A stretch of DNA of 11,044 nt, from assembly GCA_964610875.1 (NCBI GenBank), contig CAZSWP010000070.1, positions 1-11,044 of the forward strand, read 5' to 3'. Positions 1 through 11,044 of the stretch are shown here, piece after piece. A program made the position numbers and the translations under genes. This DNA comes from an uncultured archaeon. GTDB lineage: Archaea > Asgardarchaeota > Thorarchaeia > Thorarchaeales > Thorarchaeaceae. Within the stretch, counting starts at the first letter, position 1, and every line of letters begins with the position of its first letter. The notes under the pieces are model-generated. The model was not told where the DNA came from and made no database searches. It saw only the letters and a program-made list of their open reading frames with translations.

Positions 1-24
1 TTTGAATATGCACTCGAAATTTAT

Positions 25-728
25 CTTTCAACCCTACTTGTAGTCCGATTGGAACAATGTAGGAGTTGGATTTGCATTGTCAATCTGCAAGCTTTCAACC
101 CTACTTGTAGTCCGATTGGAACTTGACAGGCAGACTGTTTTTCAACTGTCCACGTATTCCTTTCAACCCTACTTGTAGTCCGATTGGAACTTTGTTGAGT
201 TTGTCGTTACTGATAGCACCAGTAATCTTTCAACCCTACTTGTAGTCCGATTGGAACCTCGGCGTTACGGCGTGATTCATCACCGCCGAAGAGCTTTCAA
301 CCCTACTTGTAGTCCGATTGGAACTGTCCTATCCCTGCTACACTCTGTCTGTGATGATAGACTTTCAACCCTACTTGTAGTCCGATTGGAACCTATAACC
401 GAGTCGAACTTCGTCTTCGCGCAGAAACCTTTCAACCCTACTTGTAGTCCGATTGGAACAGCGGAATGTTGATATTCTTGGCACTTCGCAAATGCCTTTC
501 AACCCTACTTGTAGTCCGATTGGAACATTAGGATGGTGAAGATTTCATCATCCAATTTTTTACTTTCAACCCTACTTGTAGTCCGATTGGAACCCGCGTA
601 CGAGCGCTGCCACGAGTTTCTTCGCCTTAACTTTCAACCCTACTTGTAGTCCGATTGGAACTTTGAGCACGTGCTGATTCGTTCAGACGTACAATAACTT
701 TCAACCCTACTTGTAGTCCGATTGGAAC
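25..728 (-). CRISPR. CRISPR array 1: 11 identical 31-bp repeats, 10 complete spacers of 36-37 bp; probably continues beyond the left edge
   Basis: CTTTCAACCCTACTTGTAGTCCGATTGGAAC starts at 25, 92, 160, 227, 294, 362, 429, 496, 563, 631 and 698. The reverse complement GTTCCAATCGGACTACAAGTAGGGTTGAAAG ends in the canonical -TTGAAAG 3' end, which implies minus-strand transcription with the leader beyond 728. Bases 1-24 are probably a partial spacer. Confidence 0.99.
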
Positions 729-870
729 TGGGCCTATTTTCATGCGTTTTTGTCAAAATAAGCCTTATGGGCCCCGCTACAAACAGCGGTTCTGGAAAAC
801 CTCCGGTTCTGCAAGAATGTCAGTTAGTGCTAATTCCATGCATTATTATGCAACTATATTGTATGAAGAA
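729..870 (-). promoter_or_regulatory. Putative CRISPR leader of array 1 (distal boundary approximate)
   Basis: Non-coding region abutting the undegenerated terminal repeat on the side predicted by repeat orientation. It contains a direct repeat CGGTTCTG at 787-794 and 804-811. Confidence 0.7.
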
Positions 871-1121
871 AAAGAACTTGATGATACATCATTGGGAAAC
901 CAAATCAGAGTTAGGAGAATGTATGTGTTTGAGTGAATTTCCCAATTCTGATACTGATATATGATATAAGGTAAGACAAGAAGTGCACCTTGACAAGCAA
1001 CCAACAGTTGCATCAGAATGTCGAAAAACGTAGCTAGAACATGAACTGCTGTTATATTTTAAATGCATTTCAAATGTGTAATCCGGGAGAGAATAATTAC
1101 GAGTAATCGAAAATTCGATAG

Positions 1122-1129
1122 TTTATATA
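1122..1129 (+). promoter_or_regulatory. Archaeal-type TATA box of the cas operon promoter
   Basis: TTTATATA about 55 bp upstream of the cas6 ATG (1183), followed by the SD-like AGGAGGAG at 1167-1174. Confidence 0.55.
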
Positions 1130-1182
1130 TCCAAACTGACCTAAAGTATATTAGAAGTATGACGTCAGGAGGAGATAGACTG

Positions 1183-1920
1183 ATGCGATTTCGAATTGAT
1201 CTTGCACCCTACAAGGAGAACGGAAGATCTCCACTCTTGGAGTATAATTATCAGCACCAAGTAGCGTCTATGTTTTATCATTTCTTTGATAACATCGAGC
1301 ACGAGGTCGGAGAAATTCATCACAAGAAGGGATACAAGTTCTATACCTTCTCAAGACTTGAAATACCAAGCAGAAAGGTGGTAAATGATGGTCTACTCAT
1401 GCTTTCTAATGATGCATATCTATGGTTCAGTTGCGTCGATGACAATGTAGCACTTCATCTTGCCAGAGAGATTGTGCAATCTAAGACGCTGATGATTGGA
1501 AATATATCATTTGCAGTTCTTGGGGTCCAGCTTGTTGAATCATTTCAGCCAACAAATGATGTCGTCTTCTCGACAATGTCTCCAATTCTATTGAGAACTA
1601 CAAGAGAAGAAAATGGAAGGACTCGATCATGGGACCTTGAACCTGGTGAACCTGAGTTTATTACAAGACTCTCAGACAATCTACATAGAAAATACGAGTT
1701 CTATTATGGTAAGAGGATTGATGGTAATCTTGCAGTTAAGGATGTTAAGCATGTCCGTTCAAACCGCATTCGAATAAAGGACACGTTTCATCGAGCAAAT
1801 CTAATGCATATCCATCTAGAGGGGGAACCAGAGTTACTCCAGTTCGCTTATGATTGCGGGTTGGGTGAGAAAAATTCGATGGGGTTTGGAATGGTACGTG
1901 TTGAACAGATTGGTGGGTGA
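1183..1920 (+). CDS. cas6: CRISPR-associated endoribonuclease Cas6
   Basis: C-terminal Gly-rich loop GLGEKNSMGFG; YKFYTFSRL and TMSPILL motifs. Start moved from 1063 to ATG 1183 (MRFRIDL) because of the upstream AGGAGGAG. Confidence 0.96.
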   Translation: MRFRIDLAPYKENGRSPLLEYNYQHQVASMFYHFFDNIEHEVGEIHHKKGYKFYTFSRLEIPSRKVVNDGLLMLSNDAYLWFSCVDDNVALHLAREIVQSKTLMIGNISFAVLGVQLVESFQPTNDVVFSTMSPILLRTTREENGRTRSWDLEPGEPEFITRLSDNLHRKYEFYYGKRIDGNLAVKDVKHVRSNRIRIKDTFHRANLMHIHLEGEPELLQFAYDCGLGEKNSMGFGMVRVEQIGG

Positions 1921-1926
1921 GGATCA

Positions 1927-3276
1927 ATGACACAAACTGACATTTCTATCACTCCTAATGAAAACAACCTTTTTGTGAGAACAGGTAATCCATTTGTTGA
2001 TGCAGGAATCGCAGCCCTCTGTGCTCTTTCTGATTGTTCAAAACCAGAAGAAATCACCTATGCAGACCTTGAAAAACAATTTACGTTCTTAATGAAAACC
2101 TTGACTAGGAAAGCGTGGAAAAAACCTATTCATGGTATTTTCTTTCCAAATGTTGATCTAGTCAACCCCTCGGTAAAAAATGGACCTGAACGATACAGAT
2201 CAAGAATGAACGATATACTTCATAGAGTATCAAGTAACAAAGGACAAGGCAACTGCGTAGCTTGTGGACGGAGAGATGGTGAACTCCTAGATAAGACGGG
2301 AGTTCCTTTGTTAGGTTCTCAGAAGTTCGTGAACTGGTTTCCATCCGGAAGCGTTGGAGAAGCATTTTGTCCTAACTGTACCATCGCAGTCCAGTTCATG
2401 CTCATTGGAGTTGAAAAAGTAGGTTGGCCTATGTTACTCCATTGTTCTGATTGGACTATACAGATGGCGTTTGCGAGAAGAATCAATGATAGACTAATGA
2501 TGATGGATGCAAAAAAGGAAGCCGGATTAGTTGATAGCGAATTCTCCAAACTTGCAGGTATCAATGCAATATACGATGCAATCATCAAAATCGTGACTGA
2601 CGAGTACCTGACTGAGGATATAGAAACTGGTACGAGTCTGAGATTCTATCATTTTACGAACTTTGGACAGAATCCGGAAATTGATTTCTATGATATTCCT
2701 AGTAGTGTCTTTCACTTCATGGTAGAGCTCTGCAGAAGTGATAGTCTGAGGGACTGGTATAAGATTGCGGCAAAGGGCATTGACTGGAAGGGCAAGAAGA
2801 AGAAACAGGATGTCCAAAAAAGGAAAACAAACAGACTCTATGAGAACCTAACAAAAGGGAGATCAATCTTGAGGTATTTCTTTGATAATGGGGGAGTACT
2901 TGGCGATTGGAAACTTGTTACATTATATCTAAGAATGGTGAGAGAAATGAGTGATAACCGAATTCAAGCAATAAAAGAAGTTGCAGATAGATTACTTGAG
3001 TATTGTCAATCTGTTGGAGATGCTAAATCAATCCAACGACTGCAATACGCTAGTAGCTATCGAGATTTTCGTTCCGCTCTTTTGAGAGTTCAGCAAGGGA
3101 TAGTCAAGAAGACTGGAAACCCACTACTTACTTTCGATGAGTATACCTTGGACCTTGCTCCAGAGGGAGGTGCAACTTGGAACGAGACACGAGACCTGCT
3201 ACTCTTTAGGATCCTGGAAAAGGGAGCCTCATGGATAGCAGGAATAAAAGAAGAACCGGAGGAAGAAGATGTATGA
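1927..3276 (+). CDS. cas8b: Type I-B large subunit Cas8b (Cst1/Cas8a1-like, CXXC-CXXC family)
   Basis: N-terminal TGNPFVDAG motif; CVAC...CPNC zinc-binding pair; HFTNFGQ motif; position between cas6 and cas7; GGTGA SD upstream. Confidence 0.9.
   Translation: MTQTDISITPNENNLFVRTGNPFVDAGIAALCALSDCSKPEEITYADLEKQFTFLMKTLTRKAWKKPIHGIFFPNVDLVNPSVKNGPERYRSRMNDILHRVSSNKGQGNCVACGRRDGELLDKTGVPLLGSQKFVNWFPSGSVGEAFCPNCTIAVQFMLIGVEKVGWPMLLHCSDWTIQMAFARRINDRLMMMDAKKEAGLVDSEFSKLAGINAIYDAIIKIVTDEYLTEDIETGTSLRFYHFTNFGQNPEIDFYDIPSSVFHFMVELCRSDSLRDWYKIAAKGIDWKGKKKKQDVQKRKTNRLYENLTKGRSILRYFFDNGGVLGDWKLVTLYLRMVREMSDNRIQAIKEVADRLLEYCQSVGDAKSIQRLQYASSYRDFRSALLRVQQGIVKKTGNPLLTFDEYTLDLAPEGGATWNETRDLLLFRILEKGASWIAGIKEEPEEEDV
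2947..3276 (+). CDS. cas11: Putative internally translated small subunit Cas11 (109 aa), in frame within cas8
   Basis: In-frame ATG at 2947, preceded by GGTGA (2937-2941) at 5-nt spacing. The product MSDNRIQAIKEVADRLLEY... looks all-helical. Confidence 0.55.
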   Translation: MSDNRIQAIKEVADRLLEYCQSVGDAKSIQRLQYASSYRDFRSALLRVQQGIVKKTGNPLLTFDEYTLDLAPEGGATWNETRDLLLFRILEKGASWIAGIKEEPEEEDV

Positions 3277-4289
3277 CAACTGTAATTCATGGTTTTGTTT
3301 TAATTGATGCTTGGGCCTCAGCATTAAACAATGCTGGTGCACAGCGATCAGAAAGAACTGATAATATTGTCAGAACCAAGGTGTTCTGGAGAGGAAAACA
3401 AGCTTACCCGTATGTGTCGGGTCAAGCTTGGAGGTTTTGGTGGAGGAGCACTCTTGAAGAGAAATCCGGCTGGGACCTTTCACCAATCAACCGAGAGAAA
3501 AAGATTGCATATACAGAAGCAGATCCACTCACTTATCCAGATGATGACATTTTCGGATACATGCGAGCTCCTAAGAAAGTAAAAGATGCAGCTGGTAAGA
3601 AAATGAAGAGTGAAACTCTTACAAGACTTTCTGCATTAAAGAACTCAGCTCTAGTATCAGTGAGCCCTCATAGACCAACGGAAGACTTTGGAACATTCTC
3701 TCGTTTTGAGGGTGATCCTGTACCATATGAACACGAGTTCTATTCTACTGTCATGAAGGGCATTTTTTCACTGGATATGGAGAGTGTAGGTGTGTTTAAG
3801 ACCCAAGCAACTGCAGGCAGTCAACATCTTCCCTCGAACTTTGCAATTCCAGAAGAACACAGCTCAAATTGTGAAAAAGATGAGGATTATATTGTATTGA
3901 AAAAGGATTTGCGAGTTAAAAGAGCCAGAGAAACTCTACAAGCAATTTATCATCTCTCAGGAGGTGCGATGCAAGCACGACATCTTACAAGAGTAGCTCC
4001 AAGCCTAGTCGTAGTAGGAGGTTTTTCAACTGGGACACATATGTTCAATCACCTAGTAGGTGAGAAGGATGGAGAACCAGAATTCAAATTCTCATCAATT
4101 GAGCAAATTCTTAGTGATTACGAAGAGGATAGACTCACACCCATCTATATCGGTCGTGAGGAGGGATTCATGGATAGTCTGAGTGACGATTTGAAGAAAT
4201 TACATGAAGCATATAAAGACAGAATAGTCATCGGCTCAGTCAGACAAGTCATCGATGCTCTCAGTGATAACCTAGATGCACTAGTATAG
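3273..4289 (+). CDS. cas7: Type I-B backbone subunit Cas7 (Cst2/DevR family)
   Basis: ALNNAG, YPYVSGQAWRFWWR, DDDIFGYMRA and PYEHEFY motifs. The start ATG 3273 overlaps the cas8 stop (ATGA). Confidence 0.95.
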   Translation: MTTVIHGFVLIDAWASALNNAGAQRSERTDNIVRTKVFWRGKQAYPYVSGQAWRFWWRSTLEEKSGWDLSPINREKKIAYTEADPLTYPDDDIFGYMRAPKKVKDAAGKKMKSETLTRLSALKNSALVSVSPHRPTEDFGTFSRFEGDPVPYEHEFYSTVMKGIFSLDMESVGVFKTQATAGSQHLPSNFAIPEEHSSNCEKDEDYIVLKKDLRVKRARETLQAIYHLSGGAMQARHLTRVAPSLVVVGGFSTGTHMFNHLVGEKDGEPEFKFSSIEQILSDYEEDRLTPIYIGREEGFMDSLSDDLKKLHEAYKDRIVIGSVRQVIDALSDNLDALV

Positions 4290-4295
4290 GAGAGG

Positions 4296-4952
4296 ATGGT
4301 TAAGATGCAGGCCATTCATGCTCACATAAGTAGCTGGACTGCTTCCTTTCGATATAGTGGATTTATGATTGGCATCCAACCCACATTACCAATACCTCCA
4401 CTTTCTACCGTCTACGGTCTGCTCTCAGCTGCAGCTGGACGTGTAATCACTCCCGAGGATACATTTCTTGCATACAAATTCACTAGTCAAGGGAACACTA
4501 TTGACTTAGAACGCATCGTAGAAGTTCAACCTGGTGCAGAGAGTAAAAGGAATGTTATCCGACGGGAAATATTGCTTGACTGCCACTTGGACCTGTATGT
4601 ACACCCAGACCTCTTTGAGTCACTCAAGAAACCATTCTATCCTATTCTCCTAGGAAGATCATCAGACCTTGCCAGCATAGATACAATAGATGAAGTTGAA
4701 CTTGAAAGCGTTACCAATTACGAAGGGTATTTTGGAGAGAGTATCTACACTAACCCTCCACAAGGATTTATTGAATCAACACTATACGCACTTCCAATAC
4801 ATTTCACTGATACCATCCCTCGACGAGCGATAGGAACTCGTCCGTTTGTAATGATACCTCATAGATATCATGCAAAGGGAAACGGAGTCCATGTGAGTGC
4901 AGATGAGACAGTTATGGAGCTCTTTTCAAATCAGACTCTCGGGTTGGGGTGA
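4296..4952 (+). CDS. cas5: Type I-B Cas5 (Cas5t)
   Basis: WTASFR...TLPIPPLSTVYGLLSAAAG N-terminal RAMP motif and LLGRSSDLA. Alternative start at 4305. Confidence 0.94.
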   Translation: MVKMQAIHAHISSWTASFRYSGFMIGIQPTLPIPPLSTVYGLLSAAAGRVITPEDTFLAYKFTSQGNTIDLERIVEVQPGAESKRNVIRREILLDCHLDLYVHPDLFESLKKPFYPILLGRSSDLASIDTIDEVELESVTNYEGYFGESIYTNPPQGFIESTLYALPIHFTDTIPRRAIGTRPFVMIPHRYHAKGNGVHVSADETVMELFSNQTLGLG

Positions 4953-4955
4953 TTC

Positions 4956-7217
4956 ATGGTTCTACTGGCGAAACCAAATGAATCACTACTAGATCACATT
5001 TTAGCAACATTAAGCGTTCTTGAAAGCTATTCCAGCTTGCGAGAAGTTCACAGACACTTACTAGAGGAAGATATCCATGAAGTAGTTGCACTCGCGCTCA
5101 TGATTCACGATGCAGGAAAAGCAGCCAGTGGGTTTCAAGAAGTACTCACGGAGAGACAAAGACGATGGGGATACCGACATGAAATACTATCAGCAGCTTT
5201 AGTTGATCTCCTAGATTTTGGCGACTCATTCATTGACCCACTTGATGTCGCATTGGGTGTGCTGACACATCATAAGGACATCGCAACATTGGATCTAAAA
5301 TATGGCACTTATCCTGTAGGAAGCACAGGTCATAAACGGTATCTGGAACGCACTGAGGAGATTAAGGATAACCTACCAGAGCTTGGACAGATCCTCAGAG
5401 AAATAGCTGAAACTATTAAGACCACTTTCCCCACAGCATCAAAAATACTTTCTACACTTCCTAGTGATACCTCTTATATTTTTGATTGTGTTCAACAAAA
5501 GGACCCACTCACACAGTACTTGCAAGAATATAGAAAAATGGTTCGAAAGCAAATGCTTACAGCTCGTGATATCAAAAAAGGCATGTTGATGAAAGGTTTA
5601 ATCACAGCATGTGACCATCTGGCATCAGCAGGTCATAACAGAATTAGGCATATCGATAGCAAAACAAATGTATGCCAGTATCAGTTCAATCCCTTTCAAG
5701 AGTGGTCCTCACAAACAAATGGATCGGCCATCCTAGTTGCACCAACAGGAACTGGAAAGACTGAAGCATCTCTTCTCTGGATGATGAAGAACAAGATGGC
5801 ATCAGAACGACTCTTCTACTTACTTCCAACAGTAGCAAGTATAAACATGATGTACACAAGATTACGAGATATTTTCTCTTTTGGGGATGCTAAAAAATAT
5901 GATCTTGTGTCAATGCTACATCACAAGTCCACATACTATCTCTACAAGTACTACTCTGATGAGGAATACTTGAAATCAAAAATCAAATATCAAGACTTGG
6001 CAGCTGTTGCAAGAATGATCTATTCACCTGTAAAGGTGACAACACCGTTTCAACCAATGAAGACAATTTTTGGAATCAAAGGATATGAGCGAGGTGTGGT
6101 TGAAGCTGTGGGAGGCCTCTTTGTAGTAGATGAGATCCATGCTTATGATCCTCATGTGACCGGTTTGATTGCGAGTATGTTATCAATAATGAAGACATAT
6201 GGCGCACAGGTCTTTCTGATGTCCGCCACATTTCCAAGATTCTTGCTTGATATATTCTCAAAAGATTTAGGGATTTTTTCTGACAGAATACGAATCGACA
6301 GAACTTATGATGACGAAACACGTCACTTAGTGACTGTACAATCTAATGATATCACATCAAATTTGGATTCTATAATTGATGTTGCAAAGAATGGAAGAAC
6401 TCTGATTGTATGCAATACTGTACGTAGGGCAATTGCGATATATCATACCCTTTGTGACCACCTTGACGATAAGAATGCTGTAATGCTACACAGTCGCTTT
6501 GCACTTCGTGATAGAGAAAAGAGAGAAATGGAGATTAGAGAAGCGGACATTGCAGTAGCTACCCAAGCCATTGAGGTATCATTAAACTTAGATTTTGACA
6601 GGCTATTCACCGAGCCTGCTCCCATTGATGCTTTACTTCAAAGATTTGGACGGGTGAATCGTAGAGGAAGACTATCTGATCCTGCGTCTGTAGTCGTCTT
6701 TGAGAGAGGAGGTGAATATGATCATCTCATATACAAAAACTATGAACGAGTGCATCGAACTGTAAATTCTCTCAGACGATATGGTGCAGAAGAAGGACTT
6801 CCACTAAGTAATGGTCTTGCTCGAGATTTGGTTGAGGATGTTTACTCAGAGGGTTTCACTGAGAAGGAGAGAGAGGAATATGAGCAAGCTAGATATGCAA
6901 TTGATCGTTTTTGGAAACGCCAACTTCCATATCATGAGGGGCATAAAGATGAGTTTTATTCTCTGTTCGAGTCAGTTGAGATAATTCCCAAGCATTATGA
7001 ACACCAAGTGGAAATACTCAAGGACATTCAAAGGATAGAAAGACGTAGCTATTTTGTTTCAGTACCAATTTGGACATATGCTAAATTAGAAGAGAAGAAC
7101 CTTATCAGGCGGCGGGATGATTATCTCATAGCGGAGGTGCCTTATGATGAAGAGTTAGGACTTCGCATTGATCTTCTACATAAACTCGAGGGGGGAGGAG
7201 ATGCTTTTGTCTTTTAA
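4956..7217 (+). CDS. cas3: Cas3 HD nuclease-SF2 helicase fusion
   Basis: HD domain residues (DH, HDAGK, RHE, HH, CDHLAS); helicase motifs [19 protein letters not shown] and [10 protein letters not shown]. Confidence 0.98.
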
Positions 7218-7749
7218 CACTTCATTCATTGCTGAACAACTATTATGGCATCAGGGAATCCGGGTGACAGGAACAATGGTCAACTATCTCCTTGTCTGTC
7301 AAAGAAAGCTCTGGTTGCACTCAAAGGGACTTGGCAGAGAACAGGACTCTGAGCTTGTCACCATAGGATCGATAATACATCAGGATTCATTTTCCAGAGA
7401 AAATAAAGAGGTTCTAGTCTTTGATCGCATAATGATTGACCACAGGTCCTTTGTGGATGGTATCGTTATTCATGAGGTGAAAAAGACAAGAAGTAAACCA
7501 GAAGCCGCACGTGCACAACTTCTCTTCTATCTGTACGAACTTCATAGACATGGAGTGAAGTGTAGTGGAGAACTCCATTTTCTGAGTTCAAGACGAAAAG
7601 AACAGATTGTATTTGATAATGAGATGGAAGAATATGTAGAAGGTCTCTTGGACAAGATAACAAAGGTACTCAAGATGGAAAGGTGTCCTGAAATTCCAGA
7701 AGGAGCACCATGCAGAAAATGTTCATATCGAGACTATTGCAGGATGTGA
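7201..7749 (+). CDS. cas4: Cas4 RecB-like nuclease with Fe-S cluster
   Basis: [13 protein letters not shown]...[13 protein letters not shown] and C-terminal [10 protein letters not shown]. Start probably ATG 7201 after a G-rich SD, overlapping the cas3 end; exact start uncertain. Confidence 0.95.
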
Positions 7750-7753
7750 TAGT

Positions 7754-8746
7754 GTGAAACGCAATCTGTATCTCAATGTAAATGGTCGTCTGCATAGAAA
7801 AGAATCAACCATCTTCTATTATACAAAGGAAGGAAGAAAGATAGTACCTGTTGAACAAGTAAAAGCAATCTTTGCTGTAGGACATATCTCAGTGACTTCT
7901 GGAGTGGTTTCTTATTTCAGTAAGCTTGGGATACCGATTCATTTCTTTGGCCACTATGGGCATTATGAAGGTAGCTTCCTACCACGTAGACGACTCATCT
8001 CTGGGTATTCTATTGTCAACCAGTCCAGAGCTTACTTGAATAGAGAAGAACGAATAACAATAGCTACTGCTTTTGTGAAGGCATGTATCAATAATATGCA
8101 ATCTGTTCTAAAGGACTATTCAAAACGTGTACAGTCAGTATCTACTCACCTAAATGTGCTCAGTGAACTTGAAAGTGAAACAACACCAGTATCGCAAATA
8201 TCTGTTCTTATGTCAATTGAAGGGAGGGCATGGGCAGAATACTATGGTGCATTCAATGACATCATAAAAGACTTTGATATGGGAACGCGAGTCAAACGAC
8301 CTCCAAACAATCCCGTGAATGCATTGATTAGTTTTGGTAACTCATTATTGTACTCAACAACAATAACACAACTCTATCACACACAGTTGGATCCCTCTAT
8401 TAGTTATCTTCATGAACCAAGTGCACGAAGATTTTCTCTTTCTCTTGATATAGCAGAAGTATTCAAACCGGGTCTTGTAGATCTTCTTATCTTCAAGCTT
8501 CTTAATCTCGGAACTATCCAAGAAGCACATTTTGACCAAGAACTAAATCGTTGTCTACTAACTCAAGAGGGAAGGAGGATATTTGTTACTGAGTTTGATA
8601 GTGTACTTAGGTCAACAAATAAACATCCAAAGTTAAAGAGACAAGTTTCCAATGAATACTTGATTCGGCTTGATGCATACAAGTTACTAAAGACTGTCTG
8701 TGAACGGAAAGTCTTTCGTCCATATCTCATCACCAGAGGAATGTGA
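7754..8746 (+). CDS. cas1: Cas1 integrase (type I-B)
   Basis: GTG start; IPIHFFGHYGHYEGSF, EG, RPPNNPVNALISFGNSLLY, YLHEP and LSLDIAEVFKP motifs. Confidence 0.98.
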   Translation: MKRNLYLNVNGRLHRKESTIFYYTKEGRKIVPVEQVKAIFAVGHISVTSGVVSYFSKLGIPIHFFGHYGHYEGSFLPRRRLISGYSIVNQSRAYLNREERITIATAFVKACINNMQSVLKDYSKRVQSVSTHLNVLSELESETTPVSQISVLMSIEGRAWAEYYGAFNDIIKDFDMGTRVKRPPNNPVNALISFGNSLLYSTTITQLYHTQLDPSISYLHEPSARRFSLSLDIAEVFKPGLVDLLIFKLLNLGTIQEAHFDQELNRCLLTQEGRRIFVTEFDSVLRSTNKHPKLKRQVSNEYLIRLDAYKLLKTVCERKVFRPYLITRGM

Positions 8747-8750
8747 TGAT

Positions 8751-9014
8751 ATGTATGTTATCATTGTATATGACATTGAAGTTCCAAGAATAAACAAGAT
8801 AAGGAAAATATTGAGAAAGTATCTCTTCTGGGTTCAGAATTCAGTATTCGAAGGTGCATTATCTGATAGCTCATACAAAGCTATGATTTCAGAGGTCAAG
8901 AAGGAATTGAAAAAAGATTATGATTCCCTAGTCATCTATAAGTGTAAATCACAGAAGGCTTTAAAACGTTCAGTCATTGGGAGAGACTTTCTTGAATCCG
9001 ATTTTGTGATCTAG
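8751..9014 (+). CDS. cas2: Cas2
   Basis: MYVIIVYDI...WVQNSVFEG...DSLVIY; 87 aa; directly follows cas1. Start moved to ATG 8751. Confidence 0.97.
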   Translation: MYVIIVYDIEVPRINKIRKILRKYLFWVQNSVFEGALSDSSYKAMISEVKKELKKDYDSLVIYKCKSQKALKRSVIGRDFLESDFVI

Positions 9015-9106
9015 AATTCTATACAATATAGATGGGTCGAGATTGTAGCAAAGTGTTTTTGTGAAGATACCTATACTCAAGATAGATTCTGAGAGAGGTA
9101 TAATCT

Positions 9107-10645
9107 ATGGATGACAGTATTATTGTAAGTGATATAGTACAGATACTAGAGGATTGCAAGTTGCCTCTCACTAAATTTCGAATAATGGATGAGCTACATA
9201 AAAGATCAATATCAAAGGGGTTCACTCCAGAAAAATGCAAGAGAATAATTGAAGATAGTATCCACAGAAGAGAAAGAAAATTTTACAGAACTAAGAAAAT
9301 TGGGAGAGGATTCAGATATGGTTTACATAAGTGGAAGTTCTCAACGATAGCAAAACAGGTCAGAAAAGCCATACCCGCATCCGAATTTGTCCAACGTAAA
9401 GAAATCATAGAACTCATGAGGGGAATACAAGAAACAATCGGTATACAACCAACTGATTTCTTGAAAATTCTTATTGTTGAGCGTACCATAAAAAAAGGTC
9501 GAGGAAGGACGTATATCCGTTTGAATGAGTATCCCCCAAGGAACCCCAGTGATGACTATTTGAAAAATGTAACATACATGTTATTACAACTATACCGAAA
9601 ACCACAAACTGCCTCATCAATCAAACTCCTGGCACAAAGATTTCAATTGGTTTCAATGTTAACGTCAAAGCGAATTACTCATGTGATTGAAGAAAGCATT
9701 GCAAACGAGGAATATCTTTTTTCGAAATTGCATACAGGACCTCAGGAATTTCATAAACGTTACACTGTCTATAGGGAAACAAGTCGAGATCTACGTGAGA
9801 AGATGTACGAAACAATAAGATGTGAACTAGAAAAAATGAGAATCTTTAATTTTGATGATATAGTGAGAGTCATTTCTGAAGTTGAAGGTAAGAATGGCGA
9901 GTCTGTCAAGGTTGGTAGAAAGAGAATAACCAGAATTCTCGATAGTTCATCATTTCATAAGATATCTCCAAAAATATATACATCAATCCCATGTGATTTG
10001 CACAATCAATCTAATTCAACAGAGCAACTTCTGATCCTTGCGAAAAACATGCAAGATTCCGAATTCCTAGGTTTTACAGCTGCAATGGTCTATCATTCAG
10101 GAGTGGATTTGAACCCATCAATCCCGCTCACACTCGCAGCGCAACGGACAAAACCGCGTGTATCACCACGAATTTTTCAACATCGAAGATTCATAAGAAC
10201 TGTGACTGATGACCTCAAACATTTTATCATTGATGGACACCTAGGGAATCATTCCATAAGAGTGTCAAGTAAAGAACGGACATTTGTGGATTGTATCGGG
10301 CAGATAGCGCTTTGCGGTGGATGGGGTGAAATTACAAAGCATCTCATGCGTTTTACTCATTTGGATGTTTCAATCATAATTGATTATTTGTGCGAGAAAC
10401 CTCAAGGGCATATAAGACGTGTTGGATTACTCCTCGAACTTGGACGTCATAATAGCATCGAGAATTGGTGTGTTAAAGAGGACCATCTTGAAACACTTGC
10501 AAGTTTTGTAAAAGGTTCATATTTGAGCTATCCCCAAAAATTATCAGCTAACGAGTCATACCAATTCACTCGATGGAAATATAGAATCAGTAATGAAATC
10601 TATAGCACTATAACATATCTTATGACTCATCTCAAGCAGAATTGA
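9107..10645 (+). CDS. Multi-winged-helix protein with C-terminal AbiEi-like (type IV TA antitoxin) domain
   Basis: 512-aa ORF with GAGGT SD at 9095-9099. The C-terminal FLGFTAAMVYH...IRVSSKERTFVDC...LCGGWGEI...LD...DY...RRVGLLLE matches the AbiEi CTD pattern. The N-terminal QILEDCKLPLT...KGFTPEK...F...YGLHKW resembles HARE-HTH. Confidence 0.72.
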   Translation: MDDSIIVSDIVQILEDCKLPLTKFRIMDELHKRSISKGFTPEKCKRIIEDSIHRRERKFYRTKKIGRGFRYGLHKWKFSTIAKQVRKAIPASEFVQRKEIIELMRGIQETIGIQPTDFLKILIVERTIKKGRGRTYIRLNEYPPRNPSDDYLKNVTYMLLQLYRKPQTASSIKLLAQRFQLVSMLTSKRITHVIEESIANEEYLFSKLHTGPQEFHKRYTVYRETSRDLREKMYETIRCELEKMRIFNFDDIVRVISEVEGKNGESVKVGRKRITRILDSSSFHKISPKIYTSIPCDLHNQSNSTEQLLILAKNMQDSEFLGFTAAMVYHSGVDLNPSIPLTLAAQRTKPRVSPRIFQHRRFIRTVTDDLKHFIIDGHLGNHSIRVSSKERTFVDCIGQIALCGGWGEITKHLMRFTHLDVSIIIDYLCEKPQGHIRRVGLLLELGRHNSIENWCVKEDHLETLASFVKGSYLSYPQKLSANESYQFTRWKYRISNEIYSTITYLMTHLKQN

Positions 10646-10878
10646 TGGATAATTGTTTGTTGAGCATCATTACAATGCTATTGAGTCCAACAATATCTGG
10701 ACTACTCTATTTGTAACATGTCATCTTTCAACCGTTCATTGTGAGCTGGACAGTTTGGGTCACTGGAGTCTTATTTGTCCTGATTTGGTTTTGATACATG
10801 AACTATGTACTGGTTCCATTCTGAAGTACATGAAATCCTGCAAAATATGTTCAGTTTTATCTTGAATTTTTGCATCTG

Positions 10879-11044
10879 CAGTGAGCACTACTGCGAGTCC
10901 AATTGAAACACCTAACACTGTAGAGGTTGTAAAACTAGACGAAGAACTTTCATTCCTACTTCTAGTCCGATTGAAACAGAAACCTTCACGCAGGGAAAGC
11001 AGTATCAGATCTTCTTTCAACCCTACTTCTAGTCCGATTGAAAC
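10879..11044 (-). CRISPR. CRISPR array 2 (trailer end; truncated by the right edge): 3 repeats, 2 spacers visible
   Basis: CTTTCAACCCTACTTCTAGTCCGATTGAAAC at 11014-11044; a 2-mismatch copy at 10947-10977; an 8-mismatch copy at 10879-10909. Spacers are 37 bp (10910-10946) and 36 bp (10978-11013). Confidence 0.93.

Follow-up and report, generated by a model that had tools for sequence, protein, structure and literature searches.

An apparently toxin-less AbiEi-type protein with an N-terminal extension between cas2 and an array of a thorarchaeal type I-B CRISPR-Cas locus

AbiEi proteins (COG5340) are antitoxins that combine a winged helix-turn-helix (wHTH) with a C-terminal domain (CTD), are paired with toxins of the DUF1814 type and are abundant in defence islands (PMC3985639, PMC3632139). 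The AbiEi of Streptococcus agalactiae is an autorepressor whose promoter carries the two 23-bp inverted repeats that it binds (Dy et al. 2014, PMC3985639), and Rv2827c of Mycobacterium tuberculosis is a COG5340 protein whose neighbouring gene, rv2826c, encodes a DUF1814 protein (PMC3985639). Here we describe a 512-amino-acid (aa) protein with an AbiEi unit (P0001), encoded by an open reading frame (ORF) at positions 9107-10645 (plus strand) of an 11,044-bp stretch of DNA from an uncultured archaeon of the Thorarchaeaceae; this stretch is referred to as the window. [quoted passage not shown] The window is an entire contig (G000:C70; GenBank CAZSWP010000070.1) of a 3.75-Mb metagenome-assembled genome (MAG), which consists of 124 contigs, is 95% complete and is 5.8% contaminated. 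We propose, with a probability of about 0.58, that the protein is a stand-alone, toxin-less AbiEi derivative that carries a lineage-specific extension, was inserted into the gap between cas2 and the array, is probably self-regulated and has no dedicated CRISPR role.

The assignment of the C-terminal half of the protein is solid in terms of sequence, profile and fold: aa ~233-500 are a complete AbiEi/COG5340 unit, with both the wHTH and the CTD. The PADLOC AbiEi model PDLC02270 matched aa 242-492 over positions 8-251 of its 265, with an expectation (E) value of 2e-18, and an hhalign comparison of aa 225-512 with 60 homologues was end to end (probability 99.9, E 4e-31, columns 24-276 of 287). 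An exhaustive phmmer search over 1.84 billion representative sequences returned 74 matches, all inside aa 226-500 of the query. Nearly all of these matches are proteins of 255-300 aa, and the 512-aa protein is about twice the usual length, in agreement with a preliminary description of this DNA, made from its letters, which had called it unusually long for an AbiEi. Pfam recognizes AbiEi_1 in 41 of the 61 aligned sequences and AbiEi_4 in 24; the 512-aa protein itself stays below the threshold of AbiEi_1 (PF09407; 15.0-17.2 bits, where 22.2 would be needed) and had no match to AbiEi_4 (PF13338) in the Pfam search. The nearly invariant positions of the family are nevertheless all kept (Y291, A326, E390, T392, D395, G404, G405, G440 and W490), and E390, T392, D395, G404, G405, G440 and W490 fall on columns that are conserved in at least 90% of the 61 sequences. 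The motifs ERTFVDC, CGG(W) and RRVGLLLE likewise sit on nearly invariant family columns. The wHTH region (aa ~240-295, positions 9824-9991, plus strand) aligns to the N-terminal wHTH of the 60 homologues, and the CTD (aa ~305-500, positions 10019-10606, plus strand) is delimited by conserved columns, by the structural model and by fold and profile matches. The preliminary description had reported AbiEi-CTD-like motifs at aa 318-495; the likeness stands, whereas the extent was drawn too narrowly, as the homology covers aa ~233-500 and takes in the wHTH as well as the CTD. Across the whole assembly, an AbiEi profile had a single match, the 512-aa gene (E 3.5e-43).

Structural comparison leads to the same family. 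An AlphaFold2 (AF2) model built with the homologue alignment had a predicted local distance difference test (pLDDT) score of about 80-97 over aa 210-512; the wHTH (pLDDT 72-91) shows a helix-helix-strand-strand pattern, and the CTD is modelled at pLDDT 86-98. In a Foldseek search of the PDB, the sole significant matches of this model were 1zel (Rv2827c, E 1.1e-7) and 6y8q (S. agalactiae AbiEi, E 5.7e-5), which upholds the AbiEi family membership suggested earlier. A single-sequence phmmer search of the 512-aa protein against the PDB found nothing relevant, and the family profile retrieved 6y8q at 7e-5 and the AbiGI structure 9hlo at 6e-5. Rv2827c is the best structural match, with a template modelling (TM) score of 0.56 on the target; unlike the 512-aa protein, it has 295 aa and is paired with a DUF1814 partner, and the sequence identity between the two is about 11%. 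We take Rv2827c and rv2826c to be the MenA4/MenT4 pair. With the AbiEi of S. agalactiae, the protein shares the wHTH and CTD from end to end and the conserved CTD motifs. In contrast to that AbiEi, it is longer by 232 residues at the N-terminus, and an abiEii gene is found neither downstream nor elsewhere in the assembly. Thus, the bicistronic pairing with DUF1814/AbiEii by which type IV systems of the AbiE/MenAT kind are recognized is not seen for the 512-aa gene.

The gene is real and intact, and its codon usage is native. Its 512 codons run without interruption through AT-rich DNA, its GC content is 37% as compared with 41.3 +/- 2.8%, and its codon usage is host-like: among 1344 long ORFs of the genome, its codon adaptation index ranks at the 60th percentile, and both halves are in range. 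The extension, aa 1-232 (positions 9107-9802, plus strand), is basic, with 48 lysines and arginines and 28 aspartates and glutamates (net +20), and is predicted to be all-helical. Because the chance of an open frame of 232 codons at ~36% GC is about 4e-8 by our own estimate, we regard this part as coding. It had no match in Pfam, NCBIfam or PHROGs, where Pfam hits up to E 10 were DUF noise alone, and no homologue among the 1.84 billion representatives or the shorter proteins of a 5.8-billion set; in 400 Asgard genomes no homologue was found either, and the single weak match there carries 10 stops. As judged from these comparisons, aa 1-232 is an ORFan unique to this genome. The idea that the N-terminus makes this a 'multi-HTH' protein remains conjectural. 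No helix-turn-helix (HTH) hidden Markov model, HARE-HTH (PF05066) included, matched aa 1-232 in Pfam, NCBIfam or PHROGs, an hhalign comparison of this region with the AbiEi wHTH profile gave nothing, and the AF2 models of the N-terminus are unusable (pLDDT below 60 for aa 1-210 with the family multiple sequence alignment, and 36 alone). Internal repeats were not significant by BLASTP or by gapped alignment. Two weak signals speak in favour of the idea: an ungapped self-diagonal at 146 aa is the best of 160 offsets, with 31 of 2000 shuffles reaching its score (p about 0.016), and aa 187-216 have an in-register S3/S4 similarity to the recognition-helix/wing region of AbiEi (z 2.6). Extra winged helices in aa 1-232 are therefore plausible but undemonstrated.

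No toxin partner was found. The AbiEii model PF08843 had no match in the whole assembly, and the same model finds AbiEii in relatives, which serves as a positive control. A cleaned AbiEii profile built from the relatives also had no match in a profile search of the genome, and none in an unfiltered hmmsearch of 23,178 stop-to-stop ORFs, where the best E value was 0.54. Neither AbiEii nor a remnant of it was detected by profile in any frame of positions 9000-11044. The earlier statement that no AbiEii toxin follows the gene thus holds downstream and throughout the assembly. Its companion suggestion, that a toxin encoded elsewhere is neutralised, finds no candidate in the 95%-complete assembly and is left with the missing 5% or a mobile element as the place for one. 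Within the limits of such a MAG, the 512-aa protein is an orphan AbiEi. One apparent orphan AbiEii, at G000:C56:6553-7482 (E 2.6e-31), was rejected as a radical SAM enzyme, the profile used at that point having contained a radical-SAM row. This radical SAM gene (367-374 aa) is conserved at 69% identity between a relative (G011, locus L003, 218-1318) and the genome studied here (G000:C56:6397-7524). It lies directly upstream of an AbiE pair in G011 and adjoins insertion sequence (DDE transposase) and glycosyltransferase genes in G000.

The relatives give a different picture of the family. A set of 85 further genomes from the same archaeal family gave 22 matches to the AbiEi profile, 17 of them with a PF08843 match within ~400 bp. 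The five without AbiEii are in G392, in G398 (two), in G012 and, as a pseudogene, in G004. As the G012 locus also has no AbiEii by profile, a toxin-less AbiEi is not unique to the genome studied here. The four closest metagenomic homologues with readable context (P0004, P0005, P0007 and P0008) all adjoin AbiEii, and a partner AbiEii, where present, lies within ~400 bp and in most cases directly downstream. Both sets of neighbours speak for a toxin-antitoxin ancestry of the 512-aa gene. None of the 22 family AbiEi genes shares a contig with a related cas1, none of six related loci has an AbiEi or AbiEii profile match within 8 kb of cas1, and the two other array-bearing contigs of the genome have neither gene by profile. 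The full 512-aa architecture had no second example among the 1.84 billion representatives, the shorter proteins of the 5.8-billion set and the 400 Asgard genomes. The linkage to cas genes that the preliminary description anticipated for such proteins was therefore not found; the pattern it had named as speaking against its own proposal, with homologues routinely beside abiEii and unlinked to cas genes, is largely the one that these sequences suggest.

The same comparison bears on how the gene came to its present place. In the type I-B loci of G013, G004 and G012, an array follows cas2 after ~100-200 bp with no gene between, which points to a lineage-specific insertion of the 512-aa gene; the G004 locus, in which cas2 is followed by an array trailer, again without a gene, supports this further. 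G015 has no array at that place, and the G347 contig ends too soon to tell. A target-site-duplication-like copy of the cas2 3' end and intergenic sequence at 10715-10840, hinted at by MAFFT, was discarded, as 243 of 500 shuffles score as high. N-terminal accretion on AbiEi recurs in the Asgard phylum: N-extended AbiEi proteins of 400-412 aa, with extensions of 110-155 aa, occur in five genomes (G006, G399, G141, G018 and G095). Like the 512-aa protein, they carry the extension before the AbiEi unit; their extensions are unrelated to aa 1-232 (hhalign probability 0.08), and all five are followed by AbiEii, which is split in two of them. The split AbiEii genes, at L032 (G141:C76, 3001-3885; 126 and 133 aa) and at L035 (G399:C5, 2906-3799; 139 and 152 aa), could be decaying toxin genes, or could be read in another way, for instance through a frameshift. 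Three further proteins, P0025 (548 aa), P0034 (895 aa) and P0017 (744 aa), each contain two or three stretches that match the AbiEi CTD and resemble complete AbiEi units fused in tandem, unlike the enlargement described here.

The start of the ORF lies 92 bp past the cas2 stop (9014) and in the same orientation, a placement within a type I-B locus that had been noted before and is borne out by the ORF calls and by Pfam on the complete operon. Upstream of the start are two direct repeats of ~32 bp on the plus strand, 55 bp apart, with the pattern TTTTGTGA-N7-10-TATAC-N-ATAGAT. Copy 1 (9002-9033) overlaps the cas2 stop and is a candidate operator or promoter element; copy 2 (9057-9087) ends 20 bp before the start codon. 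They are followed by a Shine-Dalgarno-like element, GAGAGAGG (9091-9098, plus strand), read from the sequence 8 nt before the ATG. The composite pattern occurs twice in the 3.75-Mb assembly, both times at 9002-9087, a uniqueness that is to be expected of a pattern built on these two copies, and it is not present at the cas6 promoter or in the array leader region. An inverted repeat of 11 nt is also found upstream (9022-9047) and is weak (82%). By analogy, the two direct repeats are a putative operator of the 512-aa protein, and we infer self-regulation because such paired upstream repeats coincide with the established autorepression by AbiEi (PMC3985639). The sites of S. agalactiae AbiEi are two inverted repeats of 23 bp, whereas those described here are direct, 32 bp long and spaced by 55 bp.

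It is the trailer end of array 2, and not a leader, that lies towards the 512-aa ORF. On the minus strand, the 160 bp beside array 1 can be aligned to the G013, G004 and G012 leaders, and the blocks AACCGGNGGTTTT and CCATAANNCTTATTTTG are conserved; the leader motif is unique, both within the window and in the genome as a whole. Of the repeats of array 2, those at 10878 (66%) and 10946 (84%) are degenerate and that at 11013 is near-consensus. Degenerate terminal repeats lie at the same repeat end in array 2 of the window, on contigs C77 (7812) and C103 (243) of the same MAG, and in G004. Because a conserved leader lies beside array 1 and the degenerate ends have this polarity, the arrays are read on the minus strand of the window. 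The Thorarchaeota type I-B leader is conserved (window 742-900; L014, L015 and L017), and the arrays are opposite in strand to the cas genes of the window. The array that follows cas2 in G013 and G012 is turned the other way round, with the leader beside cas2.

On the reading that we favour, that of a solitary AbiEi derivative, the 512-aa protein would bind DNA through its AbiEi winged helix, probably with the assistance of its basic N-terminal part. The two direct repeats of 32 bp ahead of its start codon would be the likely targets, and binding there would make the protein an autorepressor like AbiEi. As no toxin is resident, the protein would work as a regulator in its own right and might, in addition, serve as an 'anti-addiction' antitoxin that neutralises AbiEii-type nucleotidyltransferases arriving on mobile elements. 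Its position beside cas2 would then follow from the tendency of defence and toxin-antitoxin genes to cluster, and not from a dedicated CRISPR role. Several points weigh against this proposal. The operator assignment draws on one pair of repeats, which are direct, as opposed to the 23-bp inverted repeats of S. agalactiae (PMC3985639). Co-transcription with the cas operon is possible, given a co-oriented gene 92 bp after cas2 with a Shine-Dalgarno-like site. A partner toxin could exist, given that 5% of the genome is missing from the assembly and that array 2 is cut off by the contig end. Finally, the retention of all conserved CTD residues in a protein without a toxin would be unexplained if the CTD served toxin neutralisation alone.

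The last two points are those on which a different proposal builds, namely that the protein is a working antitoxin for an AbiEii-type toxin supplied in trans, from the unassembled ~5% of the genome, from beyond array 2 or from a resident plasmid or virus. The nearly invariant CTD residues, all of them kept, would suit this proposal, as would an assembly that is 95% complete in 124 contigs and a contig that ends in an array, and the AbiE antitoxin and toxin need no complex (PMC3985639). However, no AbiEii was found in the assembly by Pfam or by the profile of the relatives, even unfiltered, and known partners lie within ~400 bp, mostly directly downstream; we consider this explanation unlikely. 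The complete loss of function is another way in which an AbiEi could come to stand alone: an AbiE cassette would have lost its toxin, been fused by chance to an upstream frame and begun to decay. The protein does lack a toxin, it scores 147 bits against the family profile when most full-length family homologues score 160-268, and broken copies exist in relatives, with three stops in the AbiEi of G004:C12 and split AbiEii genes in L032 and L035. Against this, the frame of 512 codons is uninterrupted, the small chance of the 232 open N-terminal codons applies here too, both halves use codons as the host does, no conserved family residue has been lost, and a Shine-Dalgarno-like site and structured repeats lie upstream; a functionless remnant is thus very unlikely.

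The preliminary description had favoured co-option, and its candidate cas or array regulator or accessory found no support in the comparison with related loci. In that account, the protein would be a dedicated CRISPR-Cas component, expressed with the cas operon, and would control cas or array transcription or couple immunity to an abortive response. A gene that runs in the direction of cas2, begins 92 bp past it, has a Shine-Dalgarno-like site and is flanked by an array on its other side is what such a component would be expected to show, and so are DNA-binding domains with a basic extension and no toxin partner. Yet the architecture is a singleton and AbiEi is absent from related type I-B loci, no family AbiEi lies on a contig with cas1, the upstream repeat motif is missing from the cas6 promoter and the leader region, and the flanking array end is a trailer rather than a leader. 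In addition, the main text of a survey of CRISPR-linked genes (10.1101/270033) does not mention AbiEi, AbiE or antitoxins. Taken together, these observations make a dedicated accessory or regulator quite unlikely. A more specific form of the idea turns on the extension: winged-helix modules in the N-terminus might make the former antitoxin a multi-site DNA reader of the cas2-proximal repeats or of the array and its trailer, that is, a lineage-specific CRISPR regulator born from a toxin-antitoxin gene. Cbp1 and Cbp2 of the Sulfolobales, which are small multi-HTH proteins that bind CRISPR repeats and are not related to AbiEi, provide a functional analogy for an array-binding role, being archaeal multi-helical DNA binders linked to arrays. 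We regard this form as highly doubtful, the analogy notwithstanding.

If the reading as a solitary, self-regulated AbiEi derivative is true, the gene would be a modest case of the fate of an antitoxin after toxin loss, in which the core is kept, a new N-terminus is added and a solitary regulator results in an Asgard defence locus. It also suggests caution, since a gene wedged into a cas locus need not be a Cas accessory; a new kind of CRISPR regulator would be at hand only if the protein were shown to control the I-B locus. As a singleton in a MAG of an uncultured archaeon, it does not permit generalisation at present.

The remainder of the window is occupied by the CRISPR-Cas locus itself. 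Array 1 (16-741) has 11 identical 31-nt repeats and is followed by its leader (742-~900, minus strand), which was delimited by alignment with related Thorarchaeota leaders. The type I-B operon cas6-cas8b-cas7-cas5-cas3-cas4-cas1-cas2 (1063-9014, plus strand) was identified by Pfam, with cas2 as its last gene (8700-9014, plus strand; CRISPR_Cas2, E 5.5e-21). The longest ORFs overlap by 46 nt for cas8b and cas7 (3231-3276), by 50 nt for cas3 and cas4 (7168-7217) and by 47 nt for cas1 and cas2 (8700-8746); for cas7, cas4 and cas2, the longest ORF probably begins too early, the real start lying downstream of it. Beyond the 512-aa gene, the trailer, or old, end of array 2 (10878-11044, minus strand) is recognized by its repeats and runs off the contig. 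The distance from the ORF stop to the first recognizable repeat of array 2, the degenerate one at 10878, is 232 bp, which matches the ~230 bp given earlier.

Array sequence was also seen on two further contigs of the MAG. On C77 (L009), an array at 7812-8580 opens with a degenerate trailer repeat at ~7812 and ends in the repeat of array 1, and C77 probably represents the distal portion of array 1. The stretch of this contig upstream of it (1-7689) carries a RAMP-superfamily (type III-like) gene (319-1437, minus strand) and an unassigned gene (5980-7689) for a 569-aa protein with a CARF-like GGT motif at its C-terminus; to judge by these neighbours, the type I-B array may be shared with a type III module. 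A third array fragment, on G000:C103 (L010, 41-272), has a one-base variant of the repeat, TCTGATTGGAAC, with the degenerate trailer repeat at 243, and is followed by a gene for a 923-aa beta-helix/NosD-like protein.

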